A stretch of DNA of 64,000 nucleotides from Patescibacteria group bacterium (GTDB taxonomy: Bacteria > Patescibacteriota > Patescibacteriia > Patescibacteriales > UBA12465). The stretch lies in the NCBI GenBank assembly GCA_041651355.1, contig JBAZJK010000001.1, positions 683,888 to 747,887 on the forward strand. The letters are read 5' to 3'. The notes under the pieces are model-generated. The model saw only the letters and a list, made by a program, of their open reading frames with translations, made no database searches and had not been told where the DNA came from. Position numbers and translations under genes: made by a program. Below, piece after piece: positions 17,987 through 37,982 of the stretch (the stretch's first letter is position 1; each line of letters starts with the position of its first letter).

Positions 17987-18178
17987 TTATTTAAAACACA
18001 GGTAAGCTAAACCGGCCATGATCATAAAAGTGATGAGCCCGGCCCATAACCAGCCACGACCTGGAAAGATGGTTTCTCCCGGTTGGGGCATGATGTGCAA
18101 ATTTAGCATTAAATTACGGCTCGGCTTAACGGGCGCCGCACTTTTAAAAGTCTGACCGTTGGCTAAATTGCTTAGCAT
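17987..18178 (-). CDS. Possible small membrane protein (63 aa) between the two TSP3-repeat genes
   Basis: ORF with a C-terminal hydrophobic helix (WLWAGLITFMIMAGLAYL), the same strand and tight spacing as its neighbours. No similarity is recognisable. Confidence 0.25.
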   Translation of the reverse strand: MLSNLANGQTFKSAAPVKPSRNLMLNLHIMPQPGETIFPGRGWLWAGLITFMIMAGLAYLCFK

Positions 18179-18190
18179 AGATAAAAGTCC

Positions 18191-18922: not shown

Positions 18923-19260
18923 ATTTTTTGTTATATAAAAATACCTAAAATTAATCCTTTCATCAGGCTAATATAAAACTAATTACAGTATAACATTTTT
19001 TTAATTTTATCACTATACACAGAACGATAAAAATACAAAACATTGTTATTTCAGGATTTTGGGGCTATTATGATAATAGAAAAGATTTAAATTTTTAAAC
19101 AAGAAAATCTAAATCGTTCCTCTTGACAAAATCAACAAAAAAAACTAATATAACAAGTCTATCTAAAAATAGGCTGAAAGGAGCCATAAAGGCCCAAATA
19201 ACCCAGAACATTAACAAAAAAATAATAAAAACCATGCTAAACCCTTTAATTCAGAAACCC

Positions 19261-21154: not shown

Positions 21155-21190
21155 AAAAATCCTCTGTACGAGAAACAGAGGATTTTTTAA
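21155..21190. terminator. Bidirectional terminator between the T9SS-CTD gene (+) and the small ORF 21201..21515 (-)
   Basis: Stem aaaatcctctgt / acagaggatttt with T6 downstream. Confidence 0.55.
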
Positions 21191-21200: not shown

Positions 21201-21515
21201 CTACTGCTTTATTTCTGGCCGAGGCGGCCTTTGAACTTCAAGCTGCCGCAAGTCTGTCACGACATCGCTGTCTTTACGGATAAGCTTATAAACAATTACA
21301 TTGTTGCCGGAGTCACGCTGAATAACCTGTGCCCTAGTATTAGGGTCAAGATTCTTGGCTGCTTTCTCGGCGGCGGTCATATATTCAACCTTGAAACTCT
21401 GCGCTGGCGCTTGATTATTATTAGCCCCTTTATTTATCCTGACAAAAACCCAGGATAAAACTGCGATAAGGATTAAAAGGGCTAGGACTAATAAAATTAT
21501 TTTCTTTTTATTCAT
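21201..21515 (-). CDS. Small N-terminally anchored membrane protein (104 aa), last gene of the giant-protein run
   Basis: N-terminal TM IILLVLALLILIAVLSWVFV, located 9 nt downstream of the stop of giant gene D. Confidence 0.4.
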   Translation of the reverse strand: MNKKKIILLVLALLILIAVLSWVFVRINKGANNNQAPAQSFKVEYMTAAEKAAKNLDPNTRAQVIQRDSGNNVIVYKLIRKDSDVVTDLRQLEVQRPPRPEIKQ

Positions 21516-21524
21516 AAATTTATT

Positions 21525-24500
21525 TTATACTGGGCCTTGGTTGCACATCGAGGGGTTATCATGCGGGAAACAAAACTCATAGCTGGTTTTATGACAGCAA
21601 AGATAGCCGGTTTCGCAATATTCATAATTCCCGCAATTCGGCAATTTGCATTGCTTATTGCTAGTGCAAACCTTGCCTTCGGGACAACCATCGTCTCCGG
21701 TGCCAGTGCCGCACAAACCGCCACAACCGTCGGCTCCGCACTGTTTATTAGTACAATTCCTTTGACAGCATTGACCATTCTTGCAAATCTGCCCAGGCGG
21801 AGTTTCGCAAACGCCACAAGATCCGCCGCAGCCATCTGGGCCGCATTGCTTATTAGTACAATTCGGGCAACAACCTTCTCTTTCACAACCATCAACCACG
21901 TTATTATTGCAATTTTTCCAACCGACTGCACAGGTAAACACTGAATTATTAAATACCTGATGGGGATACAAGCATGTCCCATCCGCCCCGGTTGGATTAT
22001 CAAACTGGCAATTGCTTGCACATTTTAGGGTTAAGCCTCCATAGGGCGCAACCGACCAAAAATTAAAATCTTTGCAGGTCTTGCCGCCAAAATCACACTG
22101 CCCGTTAGTAACATCGCAATCGCAAACTTCGCTAATTTGATTAATAATACCGTCACCACAAGTGGCCCCGGGGGGTGTACTACCGCCAGCGGCTTGTCCG
22201 CAATCTTCCGGGGCATTGATAGGAGTTTCTAAAGGAAGGCCGCTGCTATAATCTATAGTTTCACATAAGCCATCACCTTTAAACCCGCCGCCCTTAAGAG
22301 GCGAAGAGAACACGCAATAAGAACCGTTTTTTATCGGATACACAAAATCAGAATTTGAATCACAAGAATACTGTCTGGAAATACTGCTGTTAGCCGGCCA
22401 ATCGCTAATAAGAGGCACGGAACGGGTCGTTGAGGCAATGCCGTCGCAATCCTCAAAACCATCATTATAATAACCACCCTTCCCCTCAGTGTTCGGATAA
22501 CCCTTCACCCCGTCGCCGCAAAAACTATTAATCTTCAAACTAAAAGATTTACTACTAGCGGTCTTAAAATCATTGGTAGCTGTAATCGTCACGTCATATG
22601 AACCAATATCACCGATAGTAATATTCGGAACCGCAGTATTATTATGTATATAATAACGATTTGAATCAATCTCTCCGGGGTTATTTATGGCCGCATAAGC
22701 TTCCTTATCAACGAATAAACTAGAAGAGCCAAACAAACCGCTTAACAATCTCATAAACCACGATTTTTTAGCTACTGTATTAGTATTTTTATCTTTAGAA
22801 ACCTGACTATAGTTGTTATCAAGTATTAAAGCATTACTAGAGGGCAAGCCAATGGCGGTATAGGAAATTGTATAATCACCTTGTAACCTATTACCAATAA
22901 AACAAGCATAAGGGCGGCCAACCCTGGCTTCTGCTGGACAATTAAAATCAAGAATTGGAGGGGTGACTACTATATTAAACTTGATTTTTTTAGAAACTCC
23001 ACCAGGGCCACCAACAGATAATAAATAAACTGTAGTTGTGTTGGATAAGAAGGGACCGTTAGGATAACTTCCAGTGCTTAAAGACTTTAAGTCATTTCTA
23101 TTAGACTTCATTTTTATCTCATATTTATTCTCGCCCAACCTAGTAGACGACAAAAGAGCCGGGTCAAAATCACCTAAATTTCTCCCGCCGCCAGTTTCGC
23201 GTGTTAAAGTTTTTGATAAGCTACCATCTCCAGTATAAATAAAGGAGTATTCTAGATTGCTATTCGGCTTGAGCACGTGCGTGATATCTTCGGCCTCGAG
23301 AAGGACTTGAGATTCAGAGATCTTAATCGGTATAGTGGTGGTGGTCATGGTGCCATTACCATCATTAACGGAAAAACTGAAGTGATAGTTGCCCGGATCA
23401 CCGGCCTTAGCTGCGTGCAATTTGATCTGGTTAGGATTATTAGTCATTTGCATCACTGGCATATTATCCCAGGACCAATCATCGGTAGGTACAAAATTAA
23501 AAGTCAAAGGGTTGTTTTCAGCATCAAAAACTTTGATGAAACCGTTAAATTCCTGGCCGCTAATACCGTTTAACTGATAATCAACTATCTTAGGCGGGGT
23601 ATTGGCAGCGCTGGTATTATTAATAATGGCATCAGCGCATCTAAACTTGGATAAAGCGTTGCCAGAGGTGTTATATTCATCCGGACTTTCCATACCGGCG
23701 CATAAAGTATAGGCTGAGCCATTACTGTCAGTAGAGTAATAGATAACTCGACTCATAGCTGGAAACTTGAGGTGCTTCCCGTCGGATGTCTTTTCAAAAA
23801 AAGTGTTATTATTCTTATTCCAACAAGTAGCCGCCTCAAAGCCTGGGCAATAGCCCATGGAGTCGATGGGGTCACTAAGCGTACTTAAACTTAAAGCCGG
23901 CAAGAGCACTTCGCGCCAACTAGGCCAAGTTGAAACTGTCTTGTGTTTTACGAAAGTGCCAGCATCTAAGACCGGGAAACGCTTATTGGCCGTTCGGTAA
24001 TTCGCTAAAGCTGCATCTAATTCTGACAAACGAGCCACCCGTTCAATATCTCTCGTTATTTTAGCTTTCAGGCTGGAACAAAAAACGCCGACTGAACAGT
24101 CAGTATCCGAATTACACTTTGAATCATTCTGAGGAATGCATTTATTGCGATAATCGCTGGCATCAGCGCTGCATTTATAACCAGTGGCACAATCTTTATC
24201 AGAATTACAGGGTACGGAACCAATATTGCAATTGCCTTCCAAAGAAGCCGAAGGGAAATTCTCATTAAACTTCCAATGGGAAACGATACTCCCTAAAACA
24301 TCGGAAGTTTGGGTATTAGCGGTTTGATTATATGAGATCAGATAAATATTAGTATATATGGTGGTGCCGATAACATTGGTCGCGTTTACATAAACTGTCC
24401 GGCCATCGCGGATTGCTTCATAGCCATCAACCGTCAAGGCTTGGGGGGAGCCTTTGAAGCCCTGCTCTTTATACCAGCGGGAAATCGAATAATGATGAGG

Positions 24501-24632
24501 ATTAGGTAGCACTCGGACCGCAATGGCGTCGGAGCTGTCTTGCTGGGCTCTAGTTAGCGGAGAAAAAAATAATAGGCTACCGAAAATAAAACCCAAAGCA
24601 AGAAAAAAAATTATAAATTTATGTTTTGACAT
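21525..24632 (-). CDS. Giant secreted cysteine-rich protein D (about 1,035 aa from the signal-peptide Met; the ORF track extends to 24689)
   Basis: Signal peptide MSKHKFIIFFLALGFIFGSLLFFSPLTRAQ. Contains CGDGVKGYP...EDCDG and CGDGIINQISEVCDCD (DUF4215-like). The C-terminus has tandem NCTNKQCG[PA]DGCGG[SL]CG modules and many Cys. Confidence 0.7.
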   Translation of the reverse strand: MSKHKFIIFFLALGFIFGSLLFFSPLTRAQQDSSDAIAVRVLPNPHHYSISRWYKEQGFKGSPQALTVDGYEAIRDGRTVYVNATNVIGTTIYTNIYLISYNQTANTQTSDVLGSIVSHWKFNENFPSASLEGNCNIGSVPCNSDKDCATGYKCSADASDYRNKCIPQNDSKCNSDTDCSVGVFCSSLKAKITRDIERVARLSELDAALANYRTANKRFPVLDAGTFVKHKTVSTWPSWREVLLPALSLSTLSDPIDSMGYCPGFEAATCWNKNNNTFFEKTSDGKHLKFPAMSRVIYYSTDSNGSAYTLCAGMESPDEYNTSGNALSKFRCADAIINNTSAANTPPKIVDYQLNGISGQEFNGFIKVFDAENNPLTFNFVPTDDWSWDNMPVMQMTNNPNQIKLHAAKAGDPGNYHFSFSVNDGNGTMTTTTIPIKISESQVLLEAEDITHVLKPNSNLEYSFIYTGDGSLSKTLTRETGGGRNLGDFDPALLSSTRLGENKYEIKMKSNRNDLKSLSTGSYPNGPFLSNTTTVYLLSVGGPGGVSKKIKFNIVVTPPILDFNCPAEARVGRPYACFIGNRLQGDYTISYTAIGLPSSNALILDNNYSQVSKDKNTNTVAKKSWFMRLLSGLFGSSSLFVDKEAYAAINNPGEIDSNRYYIHNNTAVPNITIGDIGSYDVTITATNDFKTASSKSFSLKINSFCGDGVKGYPNTEGKGGYYNDGFEDCDGIASTTRSVPLISDWPANSSISRQYSCDSNSDFVYPIKNGSYCVFSSPLKGGGFKGDGLCETIDYSSGLPLETPINAPEDCGQAAGGSTPPGATCGDGIINQISEVCDCDVTNGQCDFGGKTCKDFNFWSVAPYGGLTLKCASNCQFDNPTGADGTCLYPHQVFNNSVFTCAVGWKNCNNNVVDGCEREGCCPNCTNKQCGPDGCGGSCGVCETPPGQICKNGQCCQRNCTNKQCGADGCGGLCGTGTGDDGCPEGKVCTSNKQCKLPNCGNYEYCETGYLCCHKTSYEFCFPHDNPSMCNQGPV

Positions 24633-24651
24633 ATTTGAAATGATGCTAATT

Positions 24652-27600
24652 TTATCGTAAACCTCCGCCTCCGGCCTGCTCATATTCACAGGTATCCCAA
24701 TCTAGAGTATTTTTATTAAACCAATTACTCTTACAACTATATGAACAGTTAGAAAGACTGCAACTACTATCATTATATATCGGGGGCTTGGTAGCGGATA
24801 GATCCCATGACGTACAGGTGGTACCGTTGAAACTTATACAAGGGACAGAAAATACAGGGCTAGTACAAAAATTTACGTGATTAAAATTAGTATAACCCTT
24901 TGTCTGGTAAAAAGATTGGTATTCCGTGCTGCCGCAAGCGACATCTTTATATAGCCTACAATCTGAGCCACAGGTGAAACTGCCCTTCCCGGGGCCATCG
25001 CACTGTTCGTTGCCATTAATCACGCCATCGCCACAGCGTTCACAAACACCGCTATTGCAATTATAACTTCCAGGGCAAGTTTGCCCGCAGTCACCACAAT
25101 TTGTCTTATCGTTGCCCTGGACATTCGTTTCACATCCATCTTTAGCGCCAGTACAATCTTTATAGGGAGCATTACAACTATAATAACAAGCATTCAAAGG
25201 ACAAGTGCTGTTATTATAGACTGGGGGCAGCGTGCTTGAATACTGCCAACTGCCTGCCGGGCAATTATTGCTAATGTTATATTTACCATTTTCACAATAA
25301 ACTTTAAAAACCACGGCTGAAGACCCGCAAAAATTCATGCTAGACCAATTACTATAACCATTAGAAGACCAATAAGTCTGATATCCAGGACTAGTACAAG
25401 CAACTTGTTGATAAACTTTACAAGTCTCGTTGTCGCAGTATAAACCTCCGCCAGGATCAGTACCATCGCATTCTTCATTACCGTTCTTCACGCCATCGCC
25501 GCATCTCTGGCAGCTGCCGGCTATACATTGATATGACCCCGAACAAGTAGAATTAGGGCCGGTACAAGCACCACAATGATTTTCATCACTACTTAGGTCA
25601 ACCTCGCAAGTATCGATATCCTGCCCGTTACAATTACCTTTGCCAGCCTTACAATTATATTCGCATTGCTTATAGGCATTGCAAACGCCATAAGGATCGG
25701 GAGAAAAAACAGGATTTTGAGTTGGCCCCCAAACACTACAATAAGTCTGGCCTCCTTGGACAGCTGACCCGCTACAAATCTGAGTGTAAGTGCCACAGAA
25801 AAAATTTATATTATTTAAATTAGAGTAACCGGAATCTGCGCAAGACATAGTCCTAACTATTTTACAATCTAAATTACAGGACAAGGACGGAGTTTCGCTC
25901 TTAAAATTGGGGCTGGAATTATAATCGCATTGTTCTGACCCAGTCACAAAACCATCGCCGCAACTACCCTCCTTACATACTTTATTGATTGGATCCCATT
26001 CATAGCCTGGACTACAAGCACAGGAACCGCTCTGGCAAAAACCATGGCTACCAAAACTACCATTGTTACATTTATTACCGCACGTGCCGCAATTTAGCAG
26101 GTCATGCTGAAGATCTACGCAAACACCGCTACATTCGCCAGAGGAACAAGCGCAGGATCCATTAACACACTGGCTCAAAGTCGGACAAGCGTTATTACAT
26201 GCGCCGCAGTGGCTGTTGTTAGAGGCGGTATTTATTTCACAACCATTAGCAGTATTTTCGTCACAATCACGGTAACTCCCGGAACAATCGCAAGATTTGC
26301 TGGGCCAAGTGCCAAGACAATCATAGTTCTTACCTGTATCGCAAGCTTGGCCACAGGCGCCGCAGTTGCTAAAATTGCTCAGACTAGTCTGACAACCGAC
26401 ATCGGTGCCACATTTGCCAAAAGGTTCATTCGGATTGCATTTAAACCGGCAAGTAGTTTCTGATCCTTGGATGTTATATTCGGTCACCAAATCTTTAGGC
26501 GGGTTAGCCTCCCAGGCGCCACAAGCATTATTAGCGCCATTAGCGCCGGTGCATTTAATGTTATATCCATTCACAGAATTAAAAACATTATAACCGGCCG
26601 GAAGGGCGGGACAAGAATAGAAATAATTTCCATATTTACAATTTTCCGTACAGCCAGAACTCGCATTATTATTACCAGAACCAAAATCACATTGTTCCGG
26701 ACTAGTTACCAGGCCGTTGCCACAGATAGGAGCTGAGCATGAAGCGTTGCTACTGCCCGCCCCAGACCCAAAACAAGTCCAAATATACTTGCCTCCAGAA
26801 GGAGTGACCGCTGAAGCGCTCCCGCTGGCACAGAGTCCTGAGGTAGGCGTAGAAGTAAGCGGCAGGTTATGGGCCTCACCGCACACTCCGCTAGACCGAC
26901 GAGTCGCCGAACAATTGACTGGGCTACCGTTATTGCCATCACAACTCCAATTCCAGCCGGCAGAGTTGGAAACAAAATCTTTGACGGTCCCTACACCACA
27001 GTTGCCCGCATCATAATAAGTCAGGCTAGTTAAATCCTTGCCATTGTTAGCCCCGCAAACCGGAGTTACTTTACAATCGCTCCACAGACAAGCATCACAA
27101 GTTTTTTTGCCAGAAAACCCACTCCAAACACAATCCTGAGGCTGAGGCCAAGCTCCGCTAGAATCTTGTTCACACTGCTCACGGCCTTCCAGTTGCTTAT
27201 TACCACAAGCCTGAGAACCTATATTGCAATTCCCTAGATGACAACCCGCTTCACAATTAGTTGTTCCTGAGTATAAACCGAGATTGCAATTGAAAGATCC
27301 CGAGCCGTCACAAGCTTCAGGACCGTTAGTAATTCCATCGCCGCAAGATTCGGCTGCTTGGCAAGCATTCCAAGCCCGGCAACCATCAGTTTCGCTGCTG
27401 CTAACGCAAGTCTGCTGCCCCCTATAACTACTGCCTGATAAAATACAGGCTTTCGAATTATTATCGCAAATCTCATTATTACCCGGCTCTATCAAGCCAT
27501 TACCGCATTTATTAAGATTGCCGAGATCAAGAGCGATCGGCTCAGATTTATTACTCTCGACTCCATTCGCTCCAATAGCGCTCAGGGCAAAATAATGGAT

Positions 27601-28008
27601 TTTAGGACTCATCTGGCTATAATCAAATTCGATATTAGAAGCCTTGAGTTGCGAATCATATGACTCGCTATAGACGCCCGACTCTACCCCGTGATACAAG
27701 CGATAGAATTGGGTGCTGTCGTTATTTGGCGTCCAGAAAAAGTTGATCGTCTTAGAACCAGCCGCTAAAGCCGCGCTCAAGCCCAAAGGAGGCAGGGCAT
27801 TCTTCTTAACTAGATTCATCCTACCGCTATTTAGCAAGGCTTGGATTTCGGCATCGCTCTCCTTATAGAAATCAGAAAAAGTCCTTTGGATGACTAAAAA
27901 TTCCAAACCGAGGATAAAGGTAAATACTAATAACAAGATTAGCTTTAAATTATGCGGCAACATCGGCTTGGTTTTCTTTTTCCCAGCCGTACTTTTTTTG
28001 GAAGCCAT
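24652..28008 (-). CDS. Giant secreted cysteine-rich protein C (1,118 aa): N-terminal TM, an FN3-like domain, then at least six CG[ND]G....E.CD repeats in about 150-aa tandem modules
   Basis: TM LKLILLLVFTFILGLEFLVI. Repeats CGNGLIEPGNNEICD, CGDGITNGPEACDG, CGNGLVTSPEQCDFG, CGDGFVTGSEQCDY, CGDGVKNGNEECDG and CGDGVINGNEQCDG. Three long modules each end in a Cys-rich knot. Confidence 0.7.
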   Translation of the reverse strand: MASKKSTAGKKKTKPMLPHNLKLILLLVFTFILGLEFLVIQRTFSDFYKESDAEIQALLNSGRMNLVKKNALPPLGLSAALAAGSKTINFFWTPNNDSTQFYRLYHGVESGVYSESYDSQLKASNIEFDYSQMSPKIHYFALSAIGANGVESNKSEPIALDLGNLNKCGNGLIEPGNNEICDNNSKACILSGSSYRGQQTCVSSSETDGCRAWNACQAAESCGDGITNGPEACDGSGSFNCNLGLYSGTTNCEAGCHLGNCNIGSQACGNKQLEGREQCEQDSSGAWPQPQDCVWSGFSGKKTCDACLWSDCKVTPVCGANNGKDLTSLTYYDAGNCGVGTVKDFVSNSAGWNWSCDGNNGSPVNCSATRRSSGVCGEAHNLPLTSTPTSGLCASGSASAVTPSGGKYIWTCFGSGAGSSNASCSAPICGNGLVTSPEQCDFGSGNNNASSGCTENCKYGNYFYSCPALPAGYNVFNSVNGYNIKCTGANGANNACGAWEANPPKDLVTEYNIQGSETTCRFKCNPNEPFGKCGTDVGCQTSLSNFSNCGACGQACDTGKNYDCLGTWPSKSCDCSGSYRDCDENTANGCEINTASNNSHCGACNNACPTLSQCVNGSCACSSGECSGVCVDLQHDLLNCGTCGNKCNNGSFGSHGFCQSGSCACSPGYEWDPINKVCKEGSCGDGFVTGSEQCDYNSSPNFKSETPSLSCNLDCKIVRTMSCADSGYSNLNNINFFCGTYTQICSGSAVQGGQTYCSVWGPTQNPVFSPDPYGVCNAYKQCEYNCKAGKGNCNGQDIDTCEVDLSSDENHCGACTGPNSTCSGSYQCIAGSCQRCGDGVKNGNEECDGTDPGGGLYCDNETCKVYQQVACTSPGYQTYWSSNGYSNWSSMNFCGSSAVVFKVYCENGKYNISNNCPAGSWQYSSTLPPVYNNSTCPLNACYYSCNAPYKDCTGAKDGCETNVQGNDKTNCGDCGQTCPGSYNCNSGVCERCGDGVINGNEQCDGPGKGSFTCGSDCRLYKDVACGSTEYQSFYQTKGYTNFNHVNFCTSPVFSVPCISFNGTTCTSWDLSATKPPIYNDSSCSLSNCSYSCKSNWFNKNTLDWDTCEYEQAGGGGLR

Positions 28009-28033
28009 ATATAATATAAAAATTAAACGCTAA

Positions 28034-31000
28034 TTAGCCGCCAGCTCCGAAACCCAAGGGCACTAGAGGTGGGCGCATATCAGTCGGAGTCACTTCGGCC
28101 GGGTCGGATAATTCACTCTCTTGGTTTTTATTGGTTAAAGCCGTTATCCTAAAAGAATATAACTGCTTGTCGCTAAGACCGGTAATAGTATATATACAGA
28201 CATAATCTAATCCGCTTTCCACACAATTATCAGACGCTAACACCCGCTTATTACTTTGAGAGGCTCCGGAAATACCATAATAAATCTTATAGGTACTAAC
28301 GCTAGTCGACTGGTCAACCGCTCTGATAGAACGCCATTGCAATTCGACCGTACCACCAATCTTTTTATCAGTAGCGCTAACTATCGTCACAATCTTCGGC
28401 TTAGCGGCCCTAAAGAAATATGATTCCTTCAAAACATTAAAGATGCACTGGCCATAAGAACCGCAAGCATCACCGCTATTAGCTCCCGTGGGGCAAGGCT
28501 CGCCGCCAACGCTGCAGATGAGGGCGCTATTTTGTCCCCTGGTCACCGGATCTTCGTTAATAGCCGGTAAATCATCGGCCGTACCTGGTTGTCCGGAATC
28601 ACGGCAATAATAGAATTTATAATTAAAGTTATTACAAGCGCCGCCAGCATCACAATTAGAATCATCTAACCAAGGACTCCAAATTCCCGAAGCTGGCACT
28701 GATGGCCAAGGATTCTCGCACACAAACACATAAACTGGGGCGGAACCAATAGCGCCGTCCCCGGCGGTGATTACTGACTTCATATCTACTTCGGCAGTAA
28801 CAGAAGTGCTGTCATCAGTCACTCCGGTCTTAGCTCGCAGCAAAGTCTTATTCTCAGCAGTCCCCCAATTAATCCCCGCTACTTGGTCGACCACATCAGC
28901 ATCATCTACGCCCCAAATCCAATCCCAATCATATTCAGATAACGGATTCAAATATTGGCCATCTTTACTTAACGCATAGGCGCTAAACGCCTTATCGCTA
29001 TCTCGTTTAGAATCAAAACTAGAATTAGTCGAATCAGAATCATTTTCGTTCAGATCATTATTGGTCGTCTGGAACAGATATGAAGAGGGAGAGACTTGGA
29101 CGTGATCAACCGTGCAGATGCCAGCGTCTGCTCCCTGCGAAGACATAGTCCGGAAAACGGAAATATATGAATTAACGTAATTTATCTTGTTGAAGGAAAT
29201 ATCCTGTCCCTCGATCGTCGTACCCCCACCCAGATTCAAACCAGCACCGTTCAAACCGGTCGCCCAATAGCTAAGGACGCCGCTATCGCTATGCAAGAAT
29301 TGATCACCTTTGACAACTATATAATATACGGTGTTAGGGTTTAAAAGCTTCTGGGGGCTAAAAATAAGGGTATCACTAGCAGATTTTTCATTGCTGACTA
29401 AACCAGGAATAGAACAATACACCTTGTCATTATTATTTCCTGGATTAGTGAAAGCGGCTAAACTGGTCTGTCTAGAAAAGACTCGGGAAATATTTCGCCC
29501 AACATAAAATACCTTATCCAGGATCCGGGCTAAGAAATTTTTAGATTTAGGTTGTTCTAACAAACTGTTATCAGCTAAGAAAGTTCCGGAGGGACAAGAT
29601 GACCCCGGGGCACGCTCCTCTAAAAGAAGCACGTTACCGGTAAAACTATTAACATCCATCGCCTGGTTGAAAGTAACTTTAATCAAGGCGTTACGGCAGA
29701 CATTTTCAGCGAGCTCAGCTGGAGTGGTCGAGGCAGTTTTAACCTCTGGCCTGGTTCGACAGCAGGAATTAATATCACAAGCGACATTGTCAGAACCGCC
29801 GCAATGTTCATCTTCAGAGCAACCGCAACATAGGCCGCGGCCAGCTCCGGAACAAGGGGCTTGATCAGCCTCGCATTGTAGTTTTAAATTTGGTTCTCCG
29901 GTGTTGATTCCGGCGCAAACGTCAGTAGCAGCGCCAACCTGACAGCAACAAGCACCGCAATCGCTAGCCCCCGCTCCGCCGACGCCGCCATTTTCAAGGA
30001 AACAACCGAAAGGCTGAGGGCAAGCGAAAGCATTACAACCGCTGGCCGTCAGATTAGAGCAAGTCATGCCTACGCCACCCGGACTACAGCTAGTCTGACA
30101 TTTATCCTGGCTCAAATAGCTACCCGTCTTATTAGCCGACGAACAATCAGGACAAGTATAATAAGCGCAATAACCGATATCAGCACCTGTTTCTATCCTC
30201 TCCTCGCCTTTACAGACATTATTACTAAAATCCCAACAACAGCTGGCGTCCATCAAACAATCATTTTCCACGCTTATTGCGGCACAATGGCTTGACCCAG
30301 GATTATCCTGGCAAGCCTGACCGCAAACCTCTGTATTTTCATATAAACCATAGGCTAAAGGAGTATTAAGGCCACATTGGCTGGGATTAGCTTGGTCACA
30401 ATCATAATAAGAACAATAGCCATAATAAGTATCTGTACTGTTCTCACTCACCCGGCCGCCACTCACATTAACGCCACGGCAAGCGCCGCCACTAGCGCCG
30501 TCGATACAGCAAGAGGCATGGCTGGCGCACAATCCATTATTCGAAGATAGGATATCGCAATCAGCGCAATAGCCTTCAGGAAATTCTGGATCGCCGACTT
30601 CGCAATATTGCCCGCTATGTCCAGAACAGTTACAAGCAGCATCCCAATCTGCCTGATTGCCACCAGGCGTCTTACAGCCAGTACATTTACCCAGACCGCT
30701 GTTTTTATCTTTAGCTGGATTAGTGTCAGAGCCGCAAGCGCCGCCGCAAGTCAAGCCGGCACAGCAATCCTGGGCCGCTTGTTCAACCCGACAACAGCAT
30801 TGACAACTAGGACTTTCATAGCATTTATTATCCGTAGCATCACAGCTGGAACCGCCAGGACAATCAACTGGCTTGGCACAGACACCAACACTGCCGCTAG
30901 TATTAAAAGCAGCGCATTCAAAACCATCGGCACAACTGATACAAGAAGTACCATTTTTATTGTCTCTATATTTATTATTACCAAGATTAATCCAGCCTGT

Positions 31001-33484
31001 GCCGGCATCTTGAGGCGGATTAATGGCTGGATAGCCAGCGCTATTTACCACCCAATGATATTCATTATTAGCCGACTTAGTGCAAACACGGAAAGAGTTG
31101 ATATCCTTTTCCCAAATAGATAAATTGCAAGGAGATTGAGTATCGTCGACACATTTATCTAAAACATTATTATATACGCCCGACGTGCAACAGACTCCTT
31201 TGTCAACTTTAGTGGTTAAATTAAAAGGAGAGCATTGGCCAGGAGAGTTGGGGCAAGATTTGCCTGTTTGGCAGGTCCCGACCGCCTTAGCCCAGCCATT
31301 ACAACTATATTGGTCTGTTAGATTATAGTAATTAGTATCAAATCTCCATTCAAAAACGGATTTTTTAGTGCTCCCAGCACAGTCACTCTCACTAGCCACA
31401 CAGGAACCTTTCTTGTAGCTCCCTTCCTGGCAACAAATATTATCAACCCCGCATTCTCCGTCGGTTTTACAGGCGCCAACGGAAAAGTTAAAAGGATTGC
31501 TGGAATTCCCGTTATTAACCACCACGACTGGACCGGAAGCGGCTCCGCCAGGAACGTTTGGCGCCATCTTTTGGGATTTATTCTTTCCCTGTCCTTCGGT
31601 GGTAATCGCAGCGCTGACTGCTTGTTCGCTATAAAATTTAGTAGTACCATTGGCACCCGATCCAAAATATTCGCCCCACAAGGCTACCGACGTGCCCACC
31701 TGTCCTTTGATCGGAAACATTTTACATAAACCAGGGTTTAAGGGGTCGTTAGCTTTAAAAATAAATTCACTGTTATTAGGCGGAGTAAGATCCTTAGTGC
31801 TCAGCCTTTCTTCTCCGCCAGCAAAAACTATATCCAGATAATAGCTGCTATTGTCGGCTAAACCGCTAGGAACCTTAACGATAATCTGATCCTCGCTCCA
31901 AATCGCATCCGCGCAGACTTCGGGAAAATCAAAATTGGCATCCGTCTCGCTCATAGGGTTACTGCCTTTTAAGACGAATTTAACTGTGCTCTTCCCTTGA
32001 ATCCGGCCAAAACCCTTTCCCCTGATGGTCACATATTGCCCAACCGGCCCTTTATCGGGCGTGAAGCCGGAAATAAAACGAGTCAAAGTTTCTTCGCCCA
32101 CCTTTCTGAATTTAAGATAATTACTTTTTAAAGGAACGGCAGCAGCCATCTTAGTTACGAAAAAAGTTGTCTTGCCAGAGACAATATCAGGAATAATCGA
32201 TTTGCCCACCTTGTTGTCTGTCACTAAGTCAGTCCCCTTACTGGAAACAGCCGCTTCATAAGAACCAAAATATGATTTAACTCCGGTCAGGTTAACGCCG
32301 TAGTAATAAAAATCTCCCTTTTGTCCTTCAGCTGGATCAAGGGAACACAAGCCAGGCCGGACTATGTTATTAGCGATAAAATCTGGCACCTGCGGACCAT
32401 TAGCATCATTAGTCATATCCGATTGGCCGTCGCTCCGCACTATTTTTAATTGATAAGATCCATTTAAACCGCTTGGGACACTGATTATTACCTGTTCGCT
32501 AGTCCAATTACTGACGCAAGGAGCGCCGGGCGTCCCAGCTAAGGTTTCACCTGCAGGATTAACAAACAGGATCTTGCTACTCGCAGCATCATAATCGCCA
32601 AAATTATAACCATAGACAGATAATAGGTTGCCGCTAGCGCCATTAGGATTACTTAAATTACAAATTCCACTCGCGCAATCAGTATCGCTAACACAGGGGC
32701 TATCGGGAGCAGATTCGCAATAGCCTCCAACCGGACTAATTTCATTTATCATCGGAGCGCCCTGGCAGGTACAATCACTTTCACTGCAAGTCAAAGCCGG
32801 ACCGCACTTACTTTCGTCCTTATCGCAAACAGCCGTGCCCGGATCAGCATCGCAGGACTCTCCTAAACCAGCCGGGGGAACACAAAAACAATTAGAATCG
32901 CAAGTGTAGCCGTCTTGGCAACTGCCGTCTTGGCAACCGTTTCCGCCGGAGGTGGTGCATTTTTCTAAATTAGCGAAACCGCAATTACTACCAACGCAAG
33001 TCCCAAAACCGCTGCTGCAATCCCAAACCCCGGAACAGCCGCAAGGAGCGCCGGAAACACAACCACTTTGGCTGCCATTACCAGTAGCATCAACTAATTT
33101 ATTCAGAACAAACCTCGCTATTCCCCAAGAAGCTAAGATGATAACTAAACCTATCGCTCCATTCCGCAGGAGCTTTTTAGCATCTTCAACTTTCTTTTCA
33201 TCGCCATCGCTAGTCATCCATTTGAAACCTCCGGCCAACATGATGACCACAGCTATCGCCGACAAGAAAAGCATGGCGATATTTATTATTCTGGCACCGA
33301 TCGCCCGAGGATCATCGGTCCCTAAAGCGATCTCATTATCAATTTCAGCCACACCGACATCGATTTGAGCATTGGTAATCTGGAAAAAAGCTAAAATGCT
33401 GAAAAATATCAGGATAAAACTAAATAATTTTAAGATGTTTTTTCTCGACACAGGCGTAAATTTAAATATTTTTATTGGGCACAA
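28034..33484 (-). CDS. Giant cysteine-rich surface protein B (1,816 aa): VirB2/TrbC-like pilin N-domain, Cys-knot regions, several IPT/TIG-like Ig domains and a C-terminal FN3
   Basis: N-terminus after signal peptide: ARIINIAMLFLSAIAVVIMLAGGFKWMTSDGDEKKVEDAKKLLRNGAIGLVIILASWGIARFVLNKL (two hydrophobic helices with a charged loop). IPT-like blocks ISPVGGY...LSVYGYNFG. FN3-like TYKIYYGISG...YSFRITALTN. Overlaps gene A by 13 nt. Confidence 0.75.
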   Translation of the reverse strand: MCPIKIFKFTPVSRKNILKLFSFILIFFSILAFFQITNAQIDVGVAEIDNEIALGTDDPRAIGARIINIAMLFLSAIAVVIMLAGGFKWMTSDGDEKKVEDAKKLLRNGAIGLVIILASWGIARFVLNKLVDATGNGSQSGCVSGAPCGCSGVWDCSSGFGTCVGSNCGFANLEKCTTSGGNGCQDGSCQDGYTCDSNCFCVPPAGLGESCDADPGTAVCDKDESKCGPALTCSESDCTCQGAPMINEISPVGGYCESAPDSPCVSDTDCASGICNLSNPNGASGNLLSVYGYNFGDYDAASSKILFVNPAGETLAGTPGAPCVSNWTSEQVIISVPSGLNGSYQLKIVRSDGQSDMTNDANGPQVPDFIANNIVRPGLCSLDPAEGQKGDFYYYGVNLTGVKSYFGSYEAAVSSKGTDLVTDNKVGKSIIPDIVSGKTTFFVTKMAAAVPLKSNYLKFRKVGEETLTRFISGFTPDKGPVGQYVTIRGKGFGRIQGKSTVKFVLKGSNPMSETDANFDFPEVCADAIWSEDQIIVKVPSGLADNSSYYLDIVFAGGEERLSTKDLTPPNNSEFIFKANDPLNPGLCKMFPIKGQVGTSVALWGEYFGSGANGTTKFYSEQAVSAAITTEGQGKNKSQKMAPNVPGGAASGPVVVVNNGNSSNPFNFSVGACKTDGECGVDNICCQEGSYKKGSCVASESDCAGSTKKSVFEWRFDTNYYNLTDQYSCNGWAKAVGTCQTGKSCPNSPGQCSPFNLTTKVDKGVCCTSGVYNNVLDKCVDDTQSPCNLSIWEKDINSFRVCTKSANNEYHWVVNSAGYPAINPPQDAGTGWINLGNNKYRDNKNGTSCISCADGFECAAFNTSGSVGVCAKPVDCPGGSSCDATDNKCYESPSCQCCCRVEQAAQDCCAGLTCGGACGSDTNPAKDKNSGLGKCTGCKTPGGNQADWDAACNCSGHSGQYCEVGDPEFPEGYCADCDILSSNNGLCASHASCCIDGASGGACRGVNVSGGRVSENSTDTYYGYCSYYDCDQANPSQCGLNTPLAYGLYENTEVCGQACQDNPGSSHCAAISVENDCLMDASCCWDFSNNVCKGEERIETGADIGYCAYYTCPDCSSANKTGSYLSQDKCQTSCSPGGVGMTCSNLTASGCNAFACPQPFGCFLENGGVGGAGASDCGACCCQVGAATDVCAGINTGEPNLKLQCEADQAPCSGAGRGLCCGCSEDEHCGGSDNVACDINSCCRTRPEVKTASTTPAELAENVCRNALIKVTFNQAMDVNSFTGNVLLLEERAPGSSCPSGTFLADNSLLEQPKSKNFLARILDKVFYVGRNISRVFSRQTSLAAFTNPGNNNDKVYCSIPGLVSNEKSASDTLIFSPQKLLNPNTVYYIVVKGDQFLHSDSGVLSYWATGLNGAGLNLGGGTTIEGQDISFNKINYVNSYISVFRTMSSQGADAGICTVDHVQVSPSSYLFQTTNNDLNENDSDSTNSSFDSKRDSDKAFSAYALSKDGQYLNPLSEYDWDWIWGVDDADVVDQVAGINWGTAENKTLLRAKTGVTDDSTSVTAEVDMKSVITAGDGAIGSAPVYVFVCENPWPSVPASGIWSPWLDDSNCDAGGACNNFNYKFYYCRDSGQPGTADDLPAINEDPVTRGQNSALICSVGGEPCPTGANSGDACGSYGQCIFNVLKESYFFRAAKPKIVTIVSATDKKIGGTVELQWRSIRAVDQSTSVSTYKIYYGISGASQSNKRVLASDNCVESGLDYVCIYTITGLSDKQLYSFRITALTNKNQESELSDPAEVTPTDMRPPLVPLGFGAGG

Positions 33485-36156
33485 TTACCTTTATTATCCA
33501 AGCCATTCTCGGCCGTGGGGCTACCAAAACAACAAGAAGATTGAGTATCGTCCGCTAAACAAGTCCCGCCAGCACTAGGCTTGAAACAATTTTGATAGAT
33601 GTCACGCAAACCAGAGCCGGCTTGAGCATTATAGGTCACAGATTCATTAAAGTTAGAGTGGAGAATATAAACATCACTCCTGTCCGGCCAACCGTCTGGG
33701 TTATTTTCATCTTTATTTTCTATCCCCGCCCAGTACCCTAGAGGCTGGGGAGTCTGGCTCCAAAGGTTAAGATAATTATGGGTGACGCCGTCCTTCTCTT
33801 CGCTGCCGGTCTTAATCGTGCTAGCCATCATCAAAGTATCAAAAGGAATCTTAATAGCCGCAGTTAAATCAGTGGGCGAACCACTCACTGGGCTAGGACT
33901 GCCAGAAATTTTAGGCGGATTAACTTTGATCTGGTTATTTATGAAAAAATACCATGAATAATTGTCTCCATGTTGAGGGTGCTGATTAATCGAATTAGCA
34001 ACATAAGGTATGCCCGCTGGGCCGTCACAAAAACCATCCTGATCGCCATCTAAAGAATTATTAGCCAGGTCAACCAAGCCATGAAGATTTTGGGGGTTTA
34101 AATCGGCTAAAGGATAATTTCTTAAATTACTATCCCGACAAGTCTTGTGATCCAATTCCACATTAGGCAAACATTTATAACTACCGAACTTAGTGCAGTC
34201 ACCATCACTAGAACATGTAAAAAGTTCAGCGGCATTCACAAAAGCCATTAACTGGCTATCTGATGGAAGGCAATATATCTTATCACCGCAACCGTTCATC
34301 CCGCATTCATTATTAGAAATAAACTCTACCGTCTTATAATTGCTACCCGCCGCAAATTTACCAGACAGGTAATCACCGACACATTTACCATTCTCACATT
34401 TAGCTGATAAGCATTCTAGATCGCCAGAACAATTATCTCCATTTCTTTTATTAGAAACGAAATTGCCAGTAATATTTAAAATCTGGAGATAGTCCTTTAA
34501 TTCATCAGCACTACCAGAGATAGTCATCGGATTAATCGGCTCATCAAAGACTATCTGGATTACTGAATTTCTTGGCTGGTCCGGCTTGCCTTGGACATTC
34601 ATGCCTTGGACATTATCTAGCCCCCCGGTCATTTGGGATAAAGCTATATTAGAATCATTGGTTTTTAGAATAATATTATCCCCGGCTAAACCTGCCTCCC
34701 TCGCCCTAAGCGATAGGGTGCCACCATTAAGACTACTAACCTCGACATCTGGATTCGGCTGGCTCGGAGAATTAATTTTCTCCTTTAAATTCGAGGCGGA
34801 ATCATTGATGCTGCTACCAACCTCGACATTATTGCCGTTAGAATTACCAGCAAAAGAATAAACAGTCTGCCCGACCGTGACGGTGCTAGCTATTTTCTCT
34901 GGATTAACGGAAATAGCCCAAGCGTCACCTGCTTCCGGATCAGCATCAATGGTAAAGCCGAAATAATTAGGAAAATCGATAGAACGCCCATTAAAATCGG
35001 CGGCCATTAAATTAATATTGGTTCCGCCTGAAACCTTAAATAGGACTCCTTTGCCCTTATCAGCGTCATAACTAACCTTAAATGACGCATCCTGGCCGTG
35101 ATAGTTATTAGAATGTTTTTCTGTATCATCAGGCATAGTCGAATTGTCGGGCGTAATATTAGCTACGCTGGCCGCCTGATAGGCTTGGGGTTGTGAATTT
35201 AAAGTTACGCTCCCCTGAGAACGCCTTTCTACCGCCGGATAAGGCGTATCTTTTTGATTATCCGGTACCGGGAAAACACCGATGATCTTAGGCGGGGTTA
35301 AATCTAATTTATTGCTGACTTCAAAACTCCAAATATAAGTATCTGACGCACAGGTCTTAAAAATTGATTCATCCAGACCGTCTTTCTTTATCTTTCCGCT
35401 TAAAGTTATGGAATAATCAGTATAGCCCGTATCAGAGCCCAGATATTCGTTGGTCCTAATAACCAAAGTTTTCTTATCGCTAGTGATAGAAACAGTGGCC
35501 GCCGCAGCCGTAGTACTGGTTTCAGCTAAAATCGAGACACTATCTGTTTTCAAAGCTTCATTGTCGCAATTGCCGTTACTATTTGCGTCTTCACAAACAG
35601 TCGTCGGGTTAATCGGCTCTTTAAACGTCACTAAAATAGCCGTATTTCTTGGTACCTCTTTTTGGTCTGGCGCCGGATACACACTTTCTAGAGTACAATT
35701 ACCCAAAGCCCCAGCTCCTGATTCCAAAGCTGATCTTTTAGCGCCAGCTGGCTCACTGCTCGTCCCCTGGCTTTGATCGATAAGCTTGTTCAATATGAAG
35801 GTAGTAATGCTCCAAGAAGCAAAAATAATAACCAGACCGATGACTGATTGTTTTAAAATCCGTTTAGCCTGGCTGATCTTATCTTCATTGCCATCACTCA
35901 TCATCCAAAGAGCGCCAGCATAAATTATCAGGATAACGGTGACCGCGCCCAAGAGACTAAGGAAGATCTGGATGATCCGAGCGGCCATCACCCGGGGGTC
36001 ATCTGAAGAAAGCCCGATGCTATTATTTACCACCTCGATACCAGCGTCGATTCCCTGGGCCTTAACCACAGAAAACCACAGGACTCCTAAGCTTAAAATA
36101 ACTAAAAAAAACCAGCTATTTCTTAACTTTTTAGAAATTTTTGATTTAATTATCAT
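33472..36156 (-). CDS. Giant surface protein A (894 aa): VirB2/TrbC-like pilin N-domain fused to a large Ig-like/Cys-containing ectodomain
   Basis: N-terminal domain ARIIQIFLSLLGAVTVILIIYAGALWMMSDGNEDKISQAKRILKQSVIGLVIIFASWSITTFILNKL is about 50% identical to the N-domain of B. First gene of the run. Confidence 0.75.
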   Translation of the reverse strand: MIIKSKISKKLRNSWFFLVILSLGVLWFSVVKAQGIDAGIEVVNNSIGLSSDDPRVMAARIIQIFLSLLGAVTVILIIYAGALWMMSDGNEDKISQAKRILKQSVIGLVIIFASWSITTFILNKLIDQSQGTSSEPAGAKRSALESGAGALGNCTLESVYPAPDQKEVPRNTAILVTFKEPINPTTVCEDANSNGNCDNEALKTDSVSILAETSTTAAAATVSITSDKKTLVIRTNEYLGSDTGYTDYSITLSGKIKKDGLDESIFKTCASDTYIWSFEVSNKLDLTPPKIIGVFPVPDNQKDTPYPAVERRSQGSVTLNSQPQAYQAASVANITPDNSTMPDDTEKHSNNYHGQDASFKVSYDADKGKGVLFKVSGGTNINLMAADFNGRSIDFPNYFGFTIDADPEAGDAWAISVNPEKIASTVTVGQTVYSFAGNSNGNNVEVGSSINDSASNLKEKINSPSQPNPDVEVSSLNGGTLSLRAREAGLAGDNIILKTNDSNIALSQMTGGLDNVQGMNVQGKPDQPRNSVIQIVFDEPINPMTISGSADELKDYLQILNITGNFVSNKRNGDNCSGDLECLSAKCENGKCVGDYLSGKFAAGSNYKTVEFISNNECGMNGCGDKIYCLPSDSQLMAFVNAAELFTCSSDGDCTKFGSYKCLPNVELDHKTCRDSNLRNYPLADLNPQNLHGLVDLANNSLDGDQDGFCDGPAGIPYVANSINQHPQHGDNYSWYFFINNQIKVNPPKISGSPSPVSGSPTDLTAAIKIPFDTLMMASTIKTGSEEKDGVTHNYLNLWSQTPQPLGYWAGIENKDENNPDGWPDRSDVYILHSNFNESVTYNAQAGSGLRDIYQNCFKPSAGGTCLADDTQSSCCFGSPTAENGLDNKGNCAQ

Positions 36157-36210
36157 GGGTATTATGTTATACTGAAATTATAGCATAAAAATAAAAACAA
36201 GAGAACAAAA

Positions 36211-37692
36211 ATGACCATTGATCGCATCATCAAAAAATTCCAAGAGAACAACCCGCAAGCCGATACGGATATTTTGCGTTTAGCTTATGATTTTGCGGCC
36301 GCAGCCCACAAGGGACAGCTCCGTAAAAACAACGAACCCTATATTAACCACCCTCTTCACACCGCCTACCTTCTGGCGGAAATCAAGGCTGATCTCCCGA
36401 CTGTTACCGCCGGGCTACTCCACGACGTGCCGGAAGACACAGAATATACTTTAGATGATATAAAAAAGAACTTCGGCCCCGAAGTTTATTCATTAGTTAA
36501 AGGCATTACGAAATTAGGCAAGATCAAATACCGCGGCATTGAACGCTACCGGGAAAACTTGCGCAAGATGTTCCTGGCGATGGCTAATGACATCAGGGTG
36601 ATATTTATAAAATTCTGCGATCGTTTGCATAATTTACGCACACTAGACTCTCTGCCGCCAGAAAAACAAAAGAGGATTGCCCAAGAAACCCTGGAAATAT
36701 ACGCTCCGATCGCCGGTATGCTCGGCATCTGGCGCTTACGCTGGCAGATGGAGGATATTTGCTTCAAATACCTTTACCCGGAAAAATACAATGAACTAGA
36801 ACAGAAATATGAAGTTGAAAAAAGGACGGAAAGCAACCAATTTTTCCAAAAAGTAAAAAATATCTTGGAGCCGAAGCTAGAAGAGGCCGGCCTTAATTAT
36901 GAACTAGAAATCCGCTTCAAGCATCTCTACAGCATCTTCAAGAAAATGGAAAATAAAGACCGGAAATTCGACGAAATCTATGATGTTTTCGCCTTAAGGG
37001 TAATCGTCCCGGAGGTTGAAGATTGCTATAAGGTCTTGGGAATAATCCATACCATCTGGAAGCCGAACCCCAACCGTTTCAAGGACTATATTGCCGTACC
37101 CAAGCCTAATGGCTACCGCTCTCTCCACACCACCGTCGTGGGACCGGAAAATAAAGCAACCGAATTCCAAATCCGCACCTATGAGATGCACGAAGAAAAC
37201 AGCTACGGTCTCTCTGCCCACTGGTACTACAAAGCGAGAAGCCAAAAAGACACTAAACAACAACCCAGCTGGGTCAAAGAAATCCTGGACATCCAAAAAG
37301 AGATTACTAACACCCAAGAATTCGTGAAAAAAATAAAATTAGATATCTTCCGCGACCGCATCTTCGTTTTCTCGCCCAAGGGTGATGCTTTCGAGCTGCC
37401 AGAAAAATCCACCCCTATCGACTTCGCTTACGCTGTCCATACAAACATCGGCAATAAAGCTTCCAGTGTGCTAGTCAACGATAAGCTGGGACGTCTCGAC
37501 CAAGAATTAAAGAATGGCGACATTGTAGAAATCATTATCGAAAAGAACCGCCAATATCCCAATCGCGATTGGTTGAAGTTTGCTAAAACCAAGAGAGCGC
37601 GTGACCGGATCCGGCAGAATGCCAAGAAAACCACCTTTGAAAATATCCGTCGCTTTATCCCAGGAATGCGCGGCCATAAAAATCCCGAATAA
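36211..37692 (+). CDS. Short bifunctional Rel/SpoT homolog (HD hydrolase + (p)ppGpp synthetase + TGS; lacks the C-terminal ACT/helical regulatory region)
   Basis: HD motif HPLHTAYLL...LLHDVPED; synthetase block YRSLHTTVVGPENKATEFQIRT; TGS IFVFSPKGDAFELPEKSTPIDFAYAVHTNIG. Confidence 0.8.
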   Translation: MTIDRIIKKFQENNPQADTDILRLAYDFAAAAHKGQLRKNNEPYINHPLHTAYLLAEIKADLPTVTAGLLHDVPEDTEYTLDDIKKNFGPEVYSLVKGITKLGKIKYRGIERYRENLRKMFLAMANDIRVIFIKFCDRLHNLRTLDSLPPEKQKRIAQETLEIYAPIAGMLGIWRLRWQMEDICFKYLYPEKYNELEQKYEVEKRTESNQFFQKVKNILEPKLEEAGLNYELEIRFKHLYSIFKKMENKDRKFDEIYDVFALRVIVPEVEDCYKVLGIIHTIWKPNPNRFKDYIAVPKPNGYRSLHTTVVGPENKATEFQIRTYEMHEENSYGLSAHWYYKARSQKDTKQQPSWVKEILDIQKEITNTQEFVKKIKLDIFRDRIFVFSPKGDAFELPEKSTPIDFAYAVHTNIGNKASSVLVNDKLGRLDQELKNGDIVEIIIEKNRQYPNRDWLKFAKTKRARDRIRQNAKKTTFENIRRFIPGMRGHKNPE

Positions 37693-37739: not shown

Positions 37740-37982
37740 TTAACGATTATTAACGGTTTCTTCTAGTTTCCCGATTTTGCGCAGATATTCTTTCTTTTTG
37801 CGCATATCCAAGCTAATCAAGGCAGACTTCTTGACCTGGCGCTTAGTCTTCTTCGGTTCCAAATATTTTTTGGAACGAGCTTTTTCTAAGCGTTTACTAT
37901 TCTTCAAGGCCTTCTTGAACTTACGCAAGAAACTTTCAAAACTTTCTCCTGGTTTACGTTTTAAATCAGCCATATAAAACAC
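37740..37982 (-). CDS. rpsU: 30S ribosomal protein S21
   Basis: 80-aa basic protein; ESFESFLRKFKKALKNS...KKYLEPKKTKRQVKKSA follows the S21 pattern (RRFKR...EKPS..RKR). Confidence 0.55.
   Translation of the reverse strand: MFYMADLKRKPGESFESFLRKFKKALKNSKRLEKARSKKYLEPKKTKRQVKKSALISLDMRKKKEYLRKIGKLEETVNNR

Follow-up and report, generated by a model that had tools for sequence, protein, structure and literature searches.

In a 64,000-nucleotide (nt) stretch of contig JBAZJK010000001.1 from a Patescibacteria group bacterium (hereafter, the window), five genes, which we call A to E, follow one another on the minus strand. The first two encode proteins in which a VirB2-like pilin module, of the kind known from type IV secretion systems (T4SS), is joined to a giant ectodomain. 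The A–B pair keeps a fixed chromosomal position and has defined partner proteins in many species. We have also shown that the combination of a pilin module with a giant ectodomain is a large and widespread class, which is not peculiar to this locus. In the reading that we moderately favour, the locus is a conserved operon on the chromosome of ABY1-type Patescibacteria (Falkowbacteria and relatives) and serves to build a surface fibre or adhesion complex anchored in the membrane. The domain families themselves are known and already annotated; what appears to be undescribed is the modular giant-pilin class together with the conserved, relA-linked partner locus.

In a Pfam scan, A matched the T4SS_pilin family (PF18895) with 39.3 bits at full length and with 43.2 bits when its N-terminal domain was taken alone, and B matched the same family with 34.6 bits, the gathering cut-off being 26.6. 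Thus, the VirB2-like N-terminal domains that the first-pass annotation, made from the sequence without database searches, had claimed for two of the proteins are borne out by profile. Both proteins also contain Big_5. In an alignment of N-domains, all 14 members match PF18895. The match of the A N-domain to the TrbC/VirB2 family (PF04956) is sub-threshold (E 0.003, 18.2 bits vs 27.9) and spans positions 4–97 of the 98 in the profile. This profile is matched below threshold, over nearly its full length, by 8 of the 14 alignment members, and three homologues of A bear a precomputed PF04956 match. The pilin modules of A and B are 36–46% identical to stand-alone pilins of 121–170 amino acids (aa), with invariant Gly, Ala and Trp positions in common. 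Comparison of the N-domain profile with the sequences in the PDB returned no solved T4SS pilin, only spurious designed 'Pizza' proteins, and the profiles of the A and D families gave nothing meaningful there.

The AlphaFold2 model of A (mean pLDDT, the predicted local distance difference test score, 83.4) consists of a signal-peptide helix, a helical hairpin and an all-beta chain of immunoglobulin-like (Ig-like) domains, which begins near residue 150 and continues to the C-terminus. The same N-terminal layout, a signal peptide and two hydrophobic helices with a short polar loop between them, is seen in B and the stand-alone pilins. In the pilin module of A the loop between these helices carries the conserved motif WMxSDGNEDKIxxAK. 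Residue A33 is nearly invariant in the alignments, and the signal peptide would be cleaved at a conserved A-x-A↓Q-type site, as read from the sequence. A VirB2 topology is implied, in which both ends lie outside and the polar, Lys-rich loop of 17 residues is cytoplasmic. Together, the cleavage site and the topology of the loop would place the ectodomain on the cell surface, and the topology predicted from the model of A agrees with the earlier claim that giant ectodomains are displayed outside the cell. Across 48 distant homologues of A, identity is 51% in the pilin module, 58% in its loop and 39% in the ectodomain. The module is under tighter constraint than its cargo, which one would not expect of a plain hydrophobic anchor, and it therefore probably does more than serve as an anchor; for example, it may take part in pilin–pilin packing or in a hand-over to a T4SS encoded elsewhere, polymerisation being hypothetical.

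More than 100 full-length homologues of A were found. They are 35–81% identical, about 890 aa long and always have both T4SS_pilin and Big_5; A is the most conserved member of the locus. The C-terminal half of the A ectodomain contains invariant Cys pairs in the alignment. Using Foldseek, we found that the best PDB match of this ectodomain is the S-layer protein SbsC (4uj6, E 4.3e-8; 4uic, E 4.6e-7; 2ra1). The other matches include Ig domains of the L,D-transpeptidase LdtMt2, cadherins and CopC-like Big_5 folds, and the Sap S-layer protein (8rw9) is also listed. With a TM-score of 0.1 and 8% identity, the likeness of A to SbsC is at the level of generic strings of Ig domains.

By its sequence, B can be regarded as a second, larger modular pilin-domain protein. 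Its orthologues of 1,818–2,224 aa lie directly after A in five distant annotated loci (L002–L006). When fragments of B were scanned alone, TIG scored 41.1 bits over two stretches (cut-off 20.9) and Big_5 scored 40.6 bits, and fn3 reached 23.3 bits, just under the Pfam cut-off of 25. Of the IPT/TIG and FN3 domains claimed earlier, the former are therefore well founded in B, and the latter is sub-threshold. The scan of the central Cys-rich fragment of B returned no family.

A, B, C and D add up to 4,882 aa, which agrees with the earlier estimate of about 4,900 aa for four giant cysteine-rich proteins. The designation as cysteine-rich does not hold for A. There are 298 Cys residues in total, namely 21 in A (2.3%), 115 in B (6.3%), 108 in C (9.7%) and 54 in D (5.1%), and E has none (0%); we counted 123 C-x(2-6)-C spacings in A–D. 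The myxo-type CGDG repeats had been ascribed to all four proteins. It turned out that C has 7–8 copies of the CG[DN]G motif and the D tail has two, and that A and B have none. No paralogy among A–D was detectable in sequence comparison except for the N-domains of A and B, which are 42% identical over 141 aa. The block contains no template/variable repeats of the diversity-generating retroelement type and no near-identical DNA repeats; the only repeats are diverged copies of the CGDG-coding motif, five of which lie in C.

We then assessed the conservation of the locus. When one genome per GTDB species was scanned, 80 near-full-length A loci were obtained, and the counts were made on the 60 with at least 7 kb of downstream sequence. 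B comes after A in 51 of these loci, the D family is downstream in 31, and TSP3 genes are found in 35, a count limited by flank length. Upstream of A, relA is divergent in 55 loci; this head-to-head arrangement hints at shared or competing promoters and perhaps at a link to the stringent response. In the nine loci without B (L019, L032, L034, L036, L039, L047, L062, L079, L080), recA and further housekeeping genes stand behind A; recA comes first, then either glycogen-metabolism genes and ftsK or RNase Y and a VanW-domain protein; no type IV pilus genes stand beside A in these nine loci. L002–L006 have in common the order lepB – hisS – small basic open reading frame (ORF) – relA (divergent) – A – B – [D – E] – TSP3 – TSP3. 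They continue either with clpP – secDF – Wzy_C/TPR – prepilin peptidase or with ybeY – dgkA – ftsA – ftsZ. The order A–B–(D–E)–TSP3–TSP3 is kept at only 30–40% protein identity across dozens of species.

The evolutionary unit is thus relA<>A–B–(D–E)–TSP3–TSP3, and not the five-gene run that had been proposed. C is a clade-restricted insertion in this unit, and the TSP3 genes at 16940..18922, which lie outside the proposed run, belong to it. The same synteny check bears on the case that had been set in advance as contrary to the first-pass annotation, namely unrelated proteins in only this genome; this case clearly fails, the order being kept in dozens of species. The closest named relatives are Candidatus Falkowbacteria, in agreement with the origin from the candidate phyla radiation (CPR) or Patescibacteria that had been claimed from the sequence. 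Falkowbacteria belong to the GTDB class ABY1 according to Table S1 of PMC12102498. Many GTDB representative records with the locus (L009, L010, L012, L013 and others) are titled 'uncultured Gammaproteobacteria bacterium', L050 is titled 'Nanoarchaeia archaeon' and L017 'Saccharimonadales'; such record titles look unreliable.

The coordinates given earlier for the five minus-strand ORFs were reproduced exactly by a six-frame ORF list (Table 1), although the two overlaps reported between them did not stand. The 38-nt overlap of C and D is an artefact of taking the longest ORF. The start of 45 of 49 D homologues is at the residue aligned with Met20, so D most likely begins at 24632, 19 nt past the C stop. 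The 13-nt overlap of A and B is probably an artefact of the same kind: an independent gene call puts the B start at a GTG 11 codons inward, and the junction is then probably a 20-nt gap. After these corrections, the gaps at all junctions are 9–25 nt, which fits one transcription unit. The co-directional block described earlier is borne out as a tight one, and its gene order is kept across many genomes. The bidirectional terminator that had been placed at 21155..21190 was confirmed by sequence and fold energy: the hairpin has a 13-bp stem with an A-run on one side and a T-run on the other (-18.5 kcal/mol, z = -4.0 vs shuffles). A consensus terminator scan missed it because the T-run is absorbed into the stem, and direct folding confirmed the hairpin. 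It is the only strong terminator of the block and sits after E. Inside the block, AT-rich promoter-like sequences are present, for example upstream of C. The TATAAT box in the intergenic region between A and relA/spoT is a putative promoter.

Table 1. Coordinates in the window of the genes, protein regions and signals discussed in the text
Feature	Coordinates	Strand	Length	Remarks
Gene A	33472..36156	-	894 aa	ORF list
A signal peptide, residues 1–33	36058..36156	-		helix 11–27 in AlphaFold2 model; site VKA↓Q
A pilin module, residues 34–129	35770..36057	-		short outside segment with DPR motif, helix 54–86, loop, helix 91–129
A ectodomain, residues 150–894	33475..35709	-		all-beta, string of Ig-like/Big_5-like domains; AlphaFold2
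Gene B	28034..33484 as ORF; 28034..33451 from GTG	-	1816 aa; 1805 aa	ORF list and independent gene call
B pilin module, ORF residues 40–132	33089..33367	-		after signal peptide ending TNA↓Q; 42% identical to A module
B IPT/TIG domain	31850..32074	-		second TIG stretch nearby
B central Cys-rich region, about residues 640–1240	29765..31567	-		9–14 Cys per 100 aa
B C-terminal third	28091..29755	-		Big_5 (1244–1301), Cys-poor beta region, terminal FN3-like (1712–1798)
Gene C	24652..28008	-	1118 aa	ORF list
Gene D	ORF 21525..24689; likely 21525..24632	-	1054 aa as ORF; about 1035 aa from Met20	
Gene E	21201..21515	-	104 aa	ORF list
Bidirectional intrinsic terminator hairpin	21155..21190	.		common to operon and convergent gene 19123..21135
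Two TSP3 bitopic membrane proteins	16940..18922	-	243 and 347 aa	TSP3_bac matches; extracellular Ca-binding repeats
Divergent intergenic region A / relA/spoT	36157..36210	.	54 nt	between start codons; TATAAT box about 20 nt upstream of A ATG
relA/spoT	36211..37692	+		head-to-head with A

The Pfam and NCBIfam scan of D and E returned no family. For D, at least 432 homologues were found; they keep a core, conserved at approximately residues 28–840, and swap C-terminal modules (among them He_PIG, Fib_succ_major, CarboxypepD_reg and Beta_helix); in our protein the variable Cys-rich tail occupies residues 724–1054. In the AlphaFold2 model, the core at residues 55–630 has a pLDDT of 80–93. Besides the signal peptide, the model contains a beta domain, Cys knots, a sheet with a long helix packed against it and three or more Ig/cadherin-like domains. 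Its structural matches are the tandem Ig domains of titin and cadherins, SbsC and the bacterial adhesins SraP, GspB and Hsa. In residues 206–337 of D (23679..24074), a long amphipathic helix lies on a sheet and the segment ends in ...Y-x-L-C-A-x-M-E. Its match to the globular part of an L004 type IV pilin is weak (hhalign E 0.0065, probability 6%), and this segment may be a pilin-like head that has no hydrophobic N-helix.

E has an N-terminal membrane anchor and a small outside domain. Its counterparts of 103–113 aa stand directly after D in L002, L005 and L006 (29–48% identity by tblastn), and in the loci examined E is always behind D. The TSP3 genes come directly after B or E in L003–L006. 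In the genome studied here, an inserted convergent gene (19123..21135) and the terminator separate them from E. This plus-strand gene encodes 670 aa with a C-terminal Por_Secre_tail domain, which is a sorting domain of the type IX secretion system, and a monoderm Patescibacterium is expected to have no such system. The syntenic region of L006 holds a 596-aa Por_Secre_tail protein at 16724..18514.

Gene C differs from the rest in its distribution. Its only 15 homologues are all in close relatives, and one weak match was found in the 60 species loci. The protein matches DUF4215 (PF13948) with 30.0 bits (cut-off 27) and the myxo-type disulfide repeat TIGR02232 with 21.1 bits (cut-off 20.8). C is thus a signal-anchored DUF4215/CGDG protein whose gene is a clade-specific insertion between B and D. 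The N-terminal FN3-like segment of C (residues 74–160, 27529..27789) and the C-terminal FN3 of the L002 orthologue of B (18152..18400) have 47% identity, and C may be partly derived from a duplication of the end of B.

In order to see how widespread the architecture is, we searched 1.84 billion cluster representatives exhaustively with the first 137 residues of A using HMMER. At a limit of E <= 1e-3, 22,647 proteins were matched, of which 4,686 also reached E <= 1e-10. At least 43 of the best 150 among the 22,647 matches are proteins of 1,000–4,978 aa with a single N-terminal pilin module; others are stand-alone pilins of 121–170 aa or chains of 2–16 tandem hairpins. A sample of 26 single-module proteins of at least 1,000 aa contains 2–8% Cys. 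The pilin module is therefore repeatedly used as the front end of giant extracellular proteins, which current annotation labels merely 'pilin' or 'Ig-like domain-containing protein'. The tandem-hairpin proteins, such as P0146 (1,775 aa, 16 stretches) and P0144 (1,147 aa, 11 stretches) within P0121–P0266, may be polytopic 'poly-pilins', or else pilin arrays whose gene calls were fused.

The literature on PF18895/T4SS_pilin, modular pilins, giant proteins and Cys-rich CPR surface proteins yielded no description of this architecture or locus. We found no paper on giant pilin-headed proteins, which agrees with the earlier statement that no characterised system of this composition was known. A similar concept is that of the modular type IV pilins of Gram-positive bacteria, for example PilB and PilC of Streptococcus sanguinis, in which a pilin module is fused to a large functional or adhesive module. 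As in these proteins, a large module would be displayed on the cell or on a filament. Type IV pilins belong to an unrelated superfamily with a class III signal peptide or N-methyl motif and are assembled by the type IV pilus machinery. In contrast, A and B have no N_methyl match (none was found in A–E in the Pfam and NCBIfam scans), and their cargo is up to ten times larger.

According to the favoured reading, Sec would export A and B, and signal peptidase I would cut both at the A-x-A↓Q site. The hairpin would remain embedded in the cytoplasmic membrane, its short conserved loop turned to the cytoplasm, so that the C-terminal rod would stand outside the cell. This rod would consist of Ig-like, Big_5, TIG and FN3 domains and owe its stiffness to disulfide knots. 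D, as a secreted cadherin/adhesin-like Ig rod with a variable Cys-rich tip, would be a partner in the same structure, together with E and the two Ca-binding TSP3 proteins. C would be a lineage-specific extra Cys-knot protein. The D tail and C, as variable distal modules, would provide the contact surface. The combination of conserved bases with variable distal ends suggests contact with a host cell or a surface. Large Cys-rich exported proteins of a 14-gene cluster in Peregrinibacteria have been proposed to serve in attachment (PMC4736985). Together with the Myxococcus Cys-rich repeat/DUF4215 proteins, these CPR proteins resemble ours in being giant, Sec-exported and 5–10% Cys, with myxo-type repeats. 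No pilin module or A–B–D–E locus is described in PMC4736985. By the CGDG-x-E-x-CD motif, only C and the D tail belong with the DUF4215/Myxococcus Cys-rich repeat group, and A and B are not members.

Several observations weigh against the favoured reading. The domain scans returned no SLH domain and no known domain for binding a ligand or the cell wall. A is placed among housekeeping genes and evolves rather slowly (35–45% identity across the group), as would be expected of a structural envelope component no less than of a host-specific adhesin. The nine genomes of 60 in which A is alone and followed by recA indicate that A can function without an adjacent B. The physical interaction of A, B, D and E is suggested by synteny alone. 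As for the filament put forward in the first-pass annotation, it did not find support; the structural matches are strings of Ig domains from S-layer proteins and adhesins. The serine-rich-repeat and cadherin-like adhesins SraP, GspB and Hsa also differ from our proteins in their anchoring: no LPx[TSA]G motif is present in A–D, whose C-termini are polar or Cys-rich, and serine-rich repeats are absent from them.

It is possible, though rather doubtful, that A and B are true modular T4SS pilins. A VirB4-type machine encoded elsewhere would then extract their hairpins and polymerise them, alone or with small VirB2-like pilins, into a conjugative-type pilus with giant adhesin modules on its shaft or tip. 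The filament of the first-pass annotation corresponds to this model. In the solved F-type pili, VirB2-type pilins have both termini turned outward, so a C-terminal cargo is geometrically possible. The PF18895 scores of the N-domains, their identity to stand-alone pilins and the conservation within A, which is highest in the cytoplasmic loop, all speak for such a role. However, a helical pilus would have no room for an ectodomain of 750–1,700 aa on each of its subunits, so that A and B would at best be minor or tip subunits; moreover, the N-domain profile matches no solved T4SS pilin. The mature size of classical T4SS pilins is about 70–130 aa, and both A and B lie outside this range.

It is an acknowledged special feature of the Patescibacterial T4SS that it has VirB2-like pilins, and passages of PMC10633639 describe them as essential in the cultivated Southlakia epibionticum, which favours the T4SS pilus. 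A and B belong to the same Pfam family and phylum as these pilins and have the same layout, a signal peptide and a two-helix hairpin. The known ones are small and, as passages of PMC10633639, PMC12102498 and PMC12857230 indicate, often form arrays of 2–11 genes beside virB4. In our locus, by contrast, the module heads proteins of 894 and about 1,805 aa. The passages of PMC10633639 and PMC12102498 that deal with these pilins make no mention of giant pilin fusions.

The setting of the genes also bears on the T4SS pilus. Instead of the usual cluster of virB4, virB3/prgI, virB6 and trsD, A and B are surrounded by housekeeping genes in the window (relA/spoT, hisS, lepB, queA, ruvB, an AddA-like helicase gene, tyrS, clpP, secD, secF, Wzy_C-TPR, prepilin peptidase and gyrA). 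Among the scanned ORFs of at least 150 aa in the window, none encodes VirB4, VirB6, VirB8, VirD4 or another T4SS component, and no T4SS genes were found in L002–L006. The VirB4 and VirB6 genes for which the first-pass annotation had advised a search outside the window were thus found neither among these ORFs nor in the five annotated loci. Three Falkowbacteria with the locus (L018, L020, L054) are listed as VirB4-positive in Tables S1 and S3 of PMC12102498. In the same tables, VirB4 and TrsD of GW2011_GWF2_43_32 are genes 572 and 573, and the sole listed VirB2 match is gene 711, flagged as not near virB4. Such Falkowbacteria genomes thus do have a T4SS at their disposal, unlinked to the locus. 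VirB4 is present in most Patescibacteria anyway, so its co-occurrence with the locus weighs little.

A bolder form of the T4SS pilus, which we consider unlikely, is that A and B are the first cargo-bearing VirB2 pilins. A chromosomal T4SS would polymerise a pilus from, or tip it with, subunits that each carry a disulfide-knotted adhesin of 750–1,700 aa (elsewhere up to about 4,800 aa), and the relA-linked A–B–D–E would be a core host-attachment organelle of ABY1 epibionts. If true, this would give the essential T4SS a concrete job, that of an attachment fibre rather than DNA transfer. The VirB2-like pilins of this T4SS are lacking in other monoderm bacteria. The locus supplies concrete candidates for localisation, cryo-electron tomography and depletion work.

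We regard it as improbable that the locus forms a structural envelope layer, that is, an S-layer-like coat or a membrane–wall spacer, in which A and B would be a tethered lattice or stalk and the TSP3 proteins Ca-dependent cross-links. The best structural match of A is SbsC, Sap S-layer domains were matched too, and SbsC is also among the matches of D. The core-gene setting (relA, hisS, lepB, secDF, ftsA/Z), the group-wide presence with moderate divergence and the co-conserved Ca-binding TSP3 repeat proteins would suit such a layer. However, the Pfam and NCBIfam scans of A–E gave no match to an SLH or SCWP-binding (secondary-cell-wall-polymer-binding) domain or to any further domain known to anchor S-layers or to form their lattice. 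SbsC of Geobacillus stearothermophilus (4uj6, 4uic, 2ra1) does resemble A in having an elongated Ig-like beta string after an N-terminal helical attachment region. It differs in that it attaches via a coiled coil that binds the secondary cell wall polymer and not via a membrane hairpin, and there is no sequence similarity; at its low TM-score the likeness is one of generic Ig strings. The swapped modules at the C-terminus of D and the clade-specific C resemble diversifying contact surfaces more closely, and an S-layer is usually a single, very highly expressed protein and not four to six different giants. Finally, it is highly improbable that the genes are chance neighbours encoding unrelated, independently transcribed secreted proteins that have no common function: the four large proteins have no similarity beyond the A/B N-domains, promoter-like sequences occur inside the block and C is an insertion, but the order conserved at low protein identity largely refutes this, and the gaps of 9–25 nt and the sole strong terminator after E also count against it.

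Some other features of the window deserve mention. An ORF at 37740..37982 on the minus strand encodes a very basic protein of 80 aa, which by eye resembles ribosomal protein bS21; in L002–L004 the slot between hisS and relA likewise holds a gene of 76–81 aa. At 6874..12311 we found a histidine-related block, which consists of histidine ammonia-lyase (6874..8532), a second HisRS-like gene (8535..9941), urocanase (10096..12111) and tRNA-His (12238..12311). L005 and L006 have only clpP–secD at this position, so the block looks like an insertion, and a second copy of hisS beside hut genes is unusual for a reduced genome. Farther downstream, at 852..6734, the genes for SecD, SecF, a Wzy_C (O-antigen-ligase-like) and TPR protein and a prepilin peptidase keep the order that they have in L005 and L006. 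One may speculate that the Wzy_C/TPR protein is a protein O-glycosylase acting on surface proteins.

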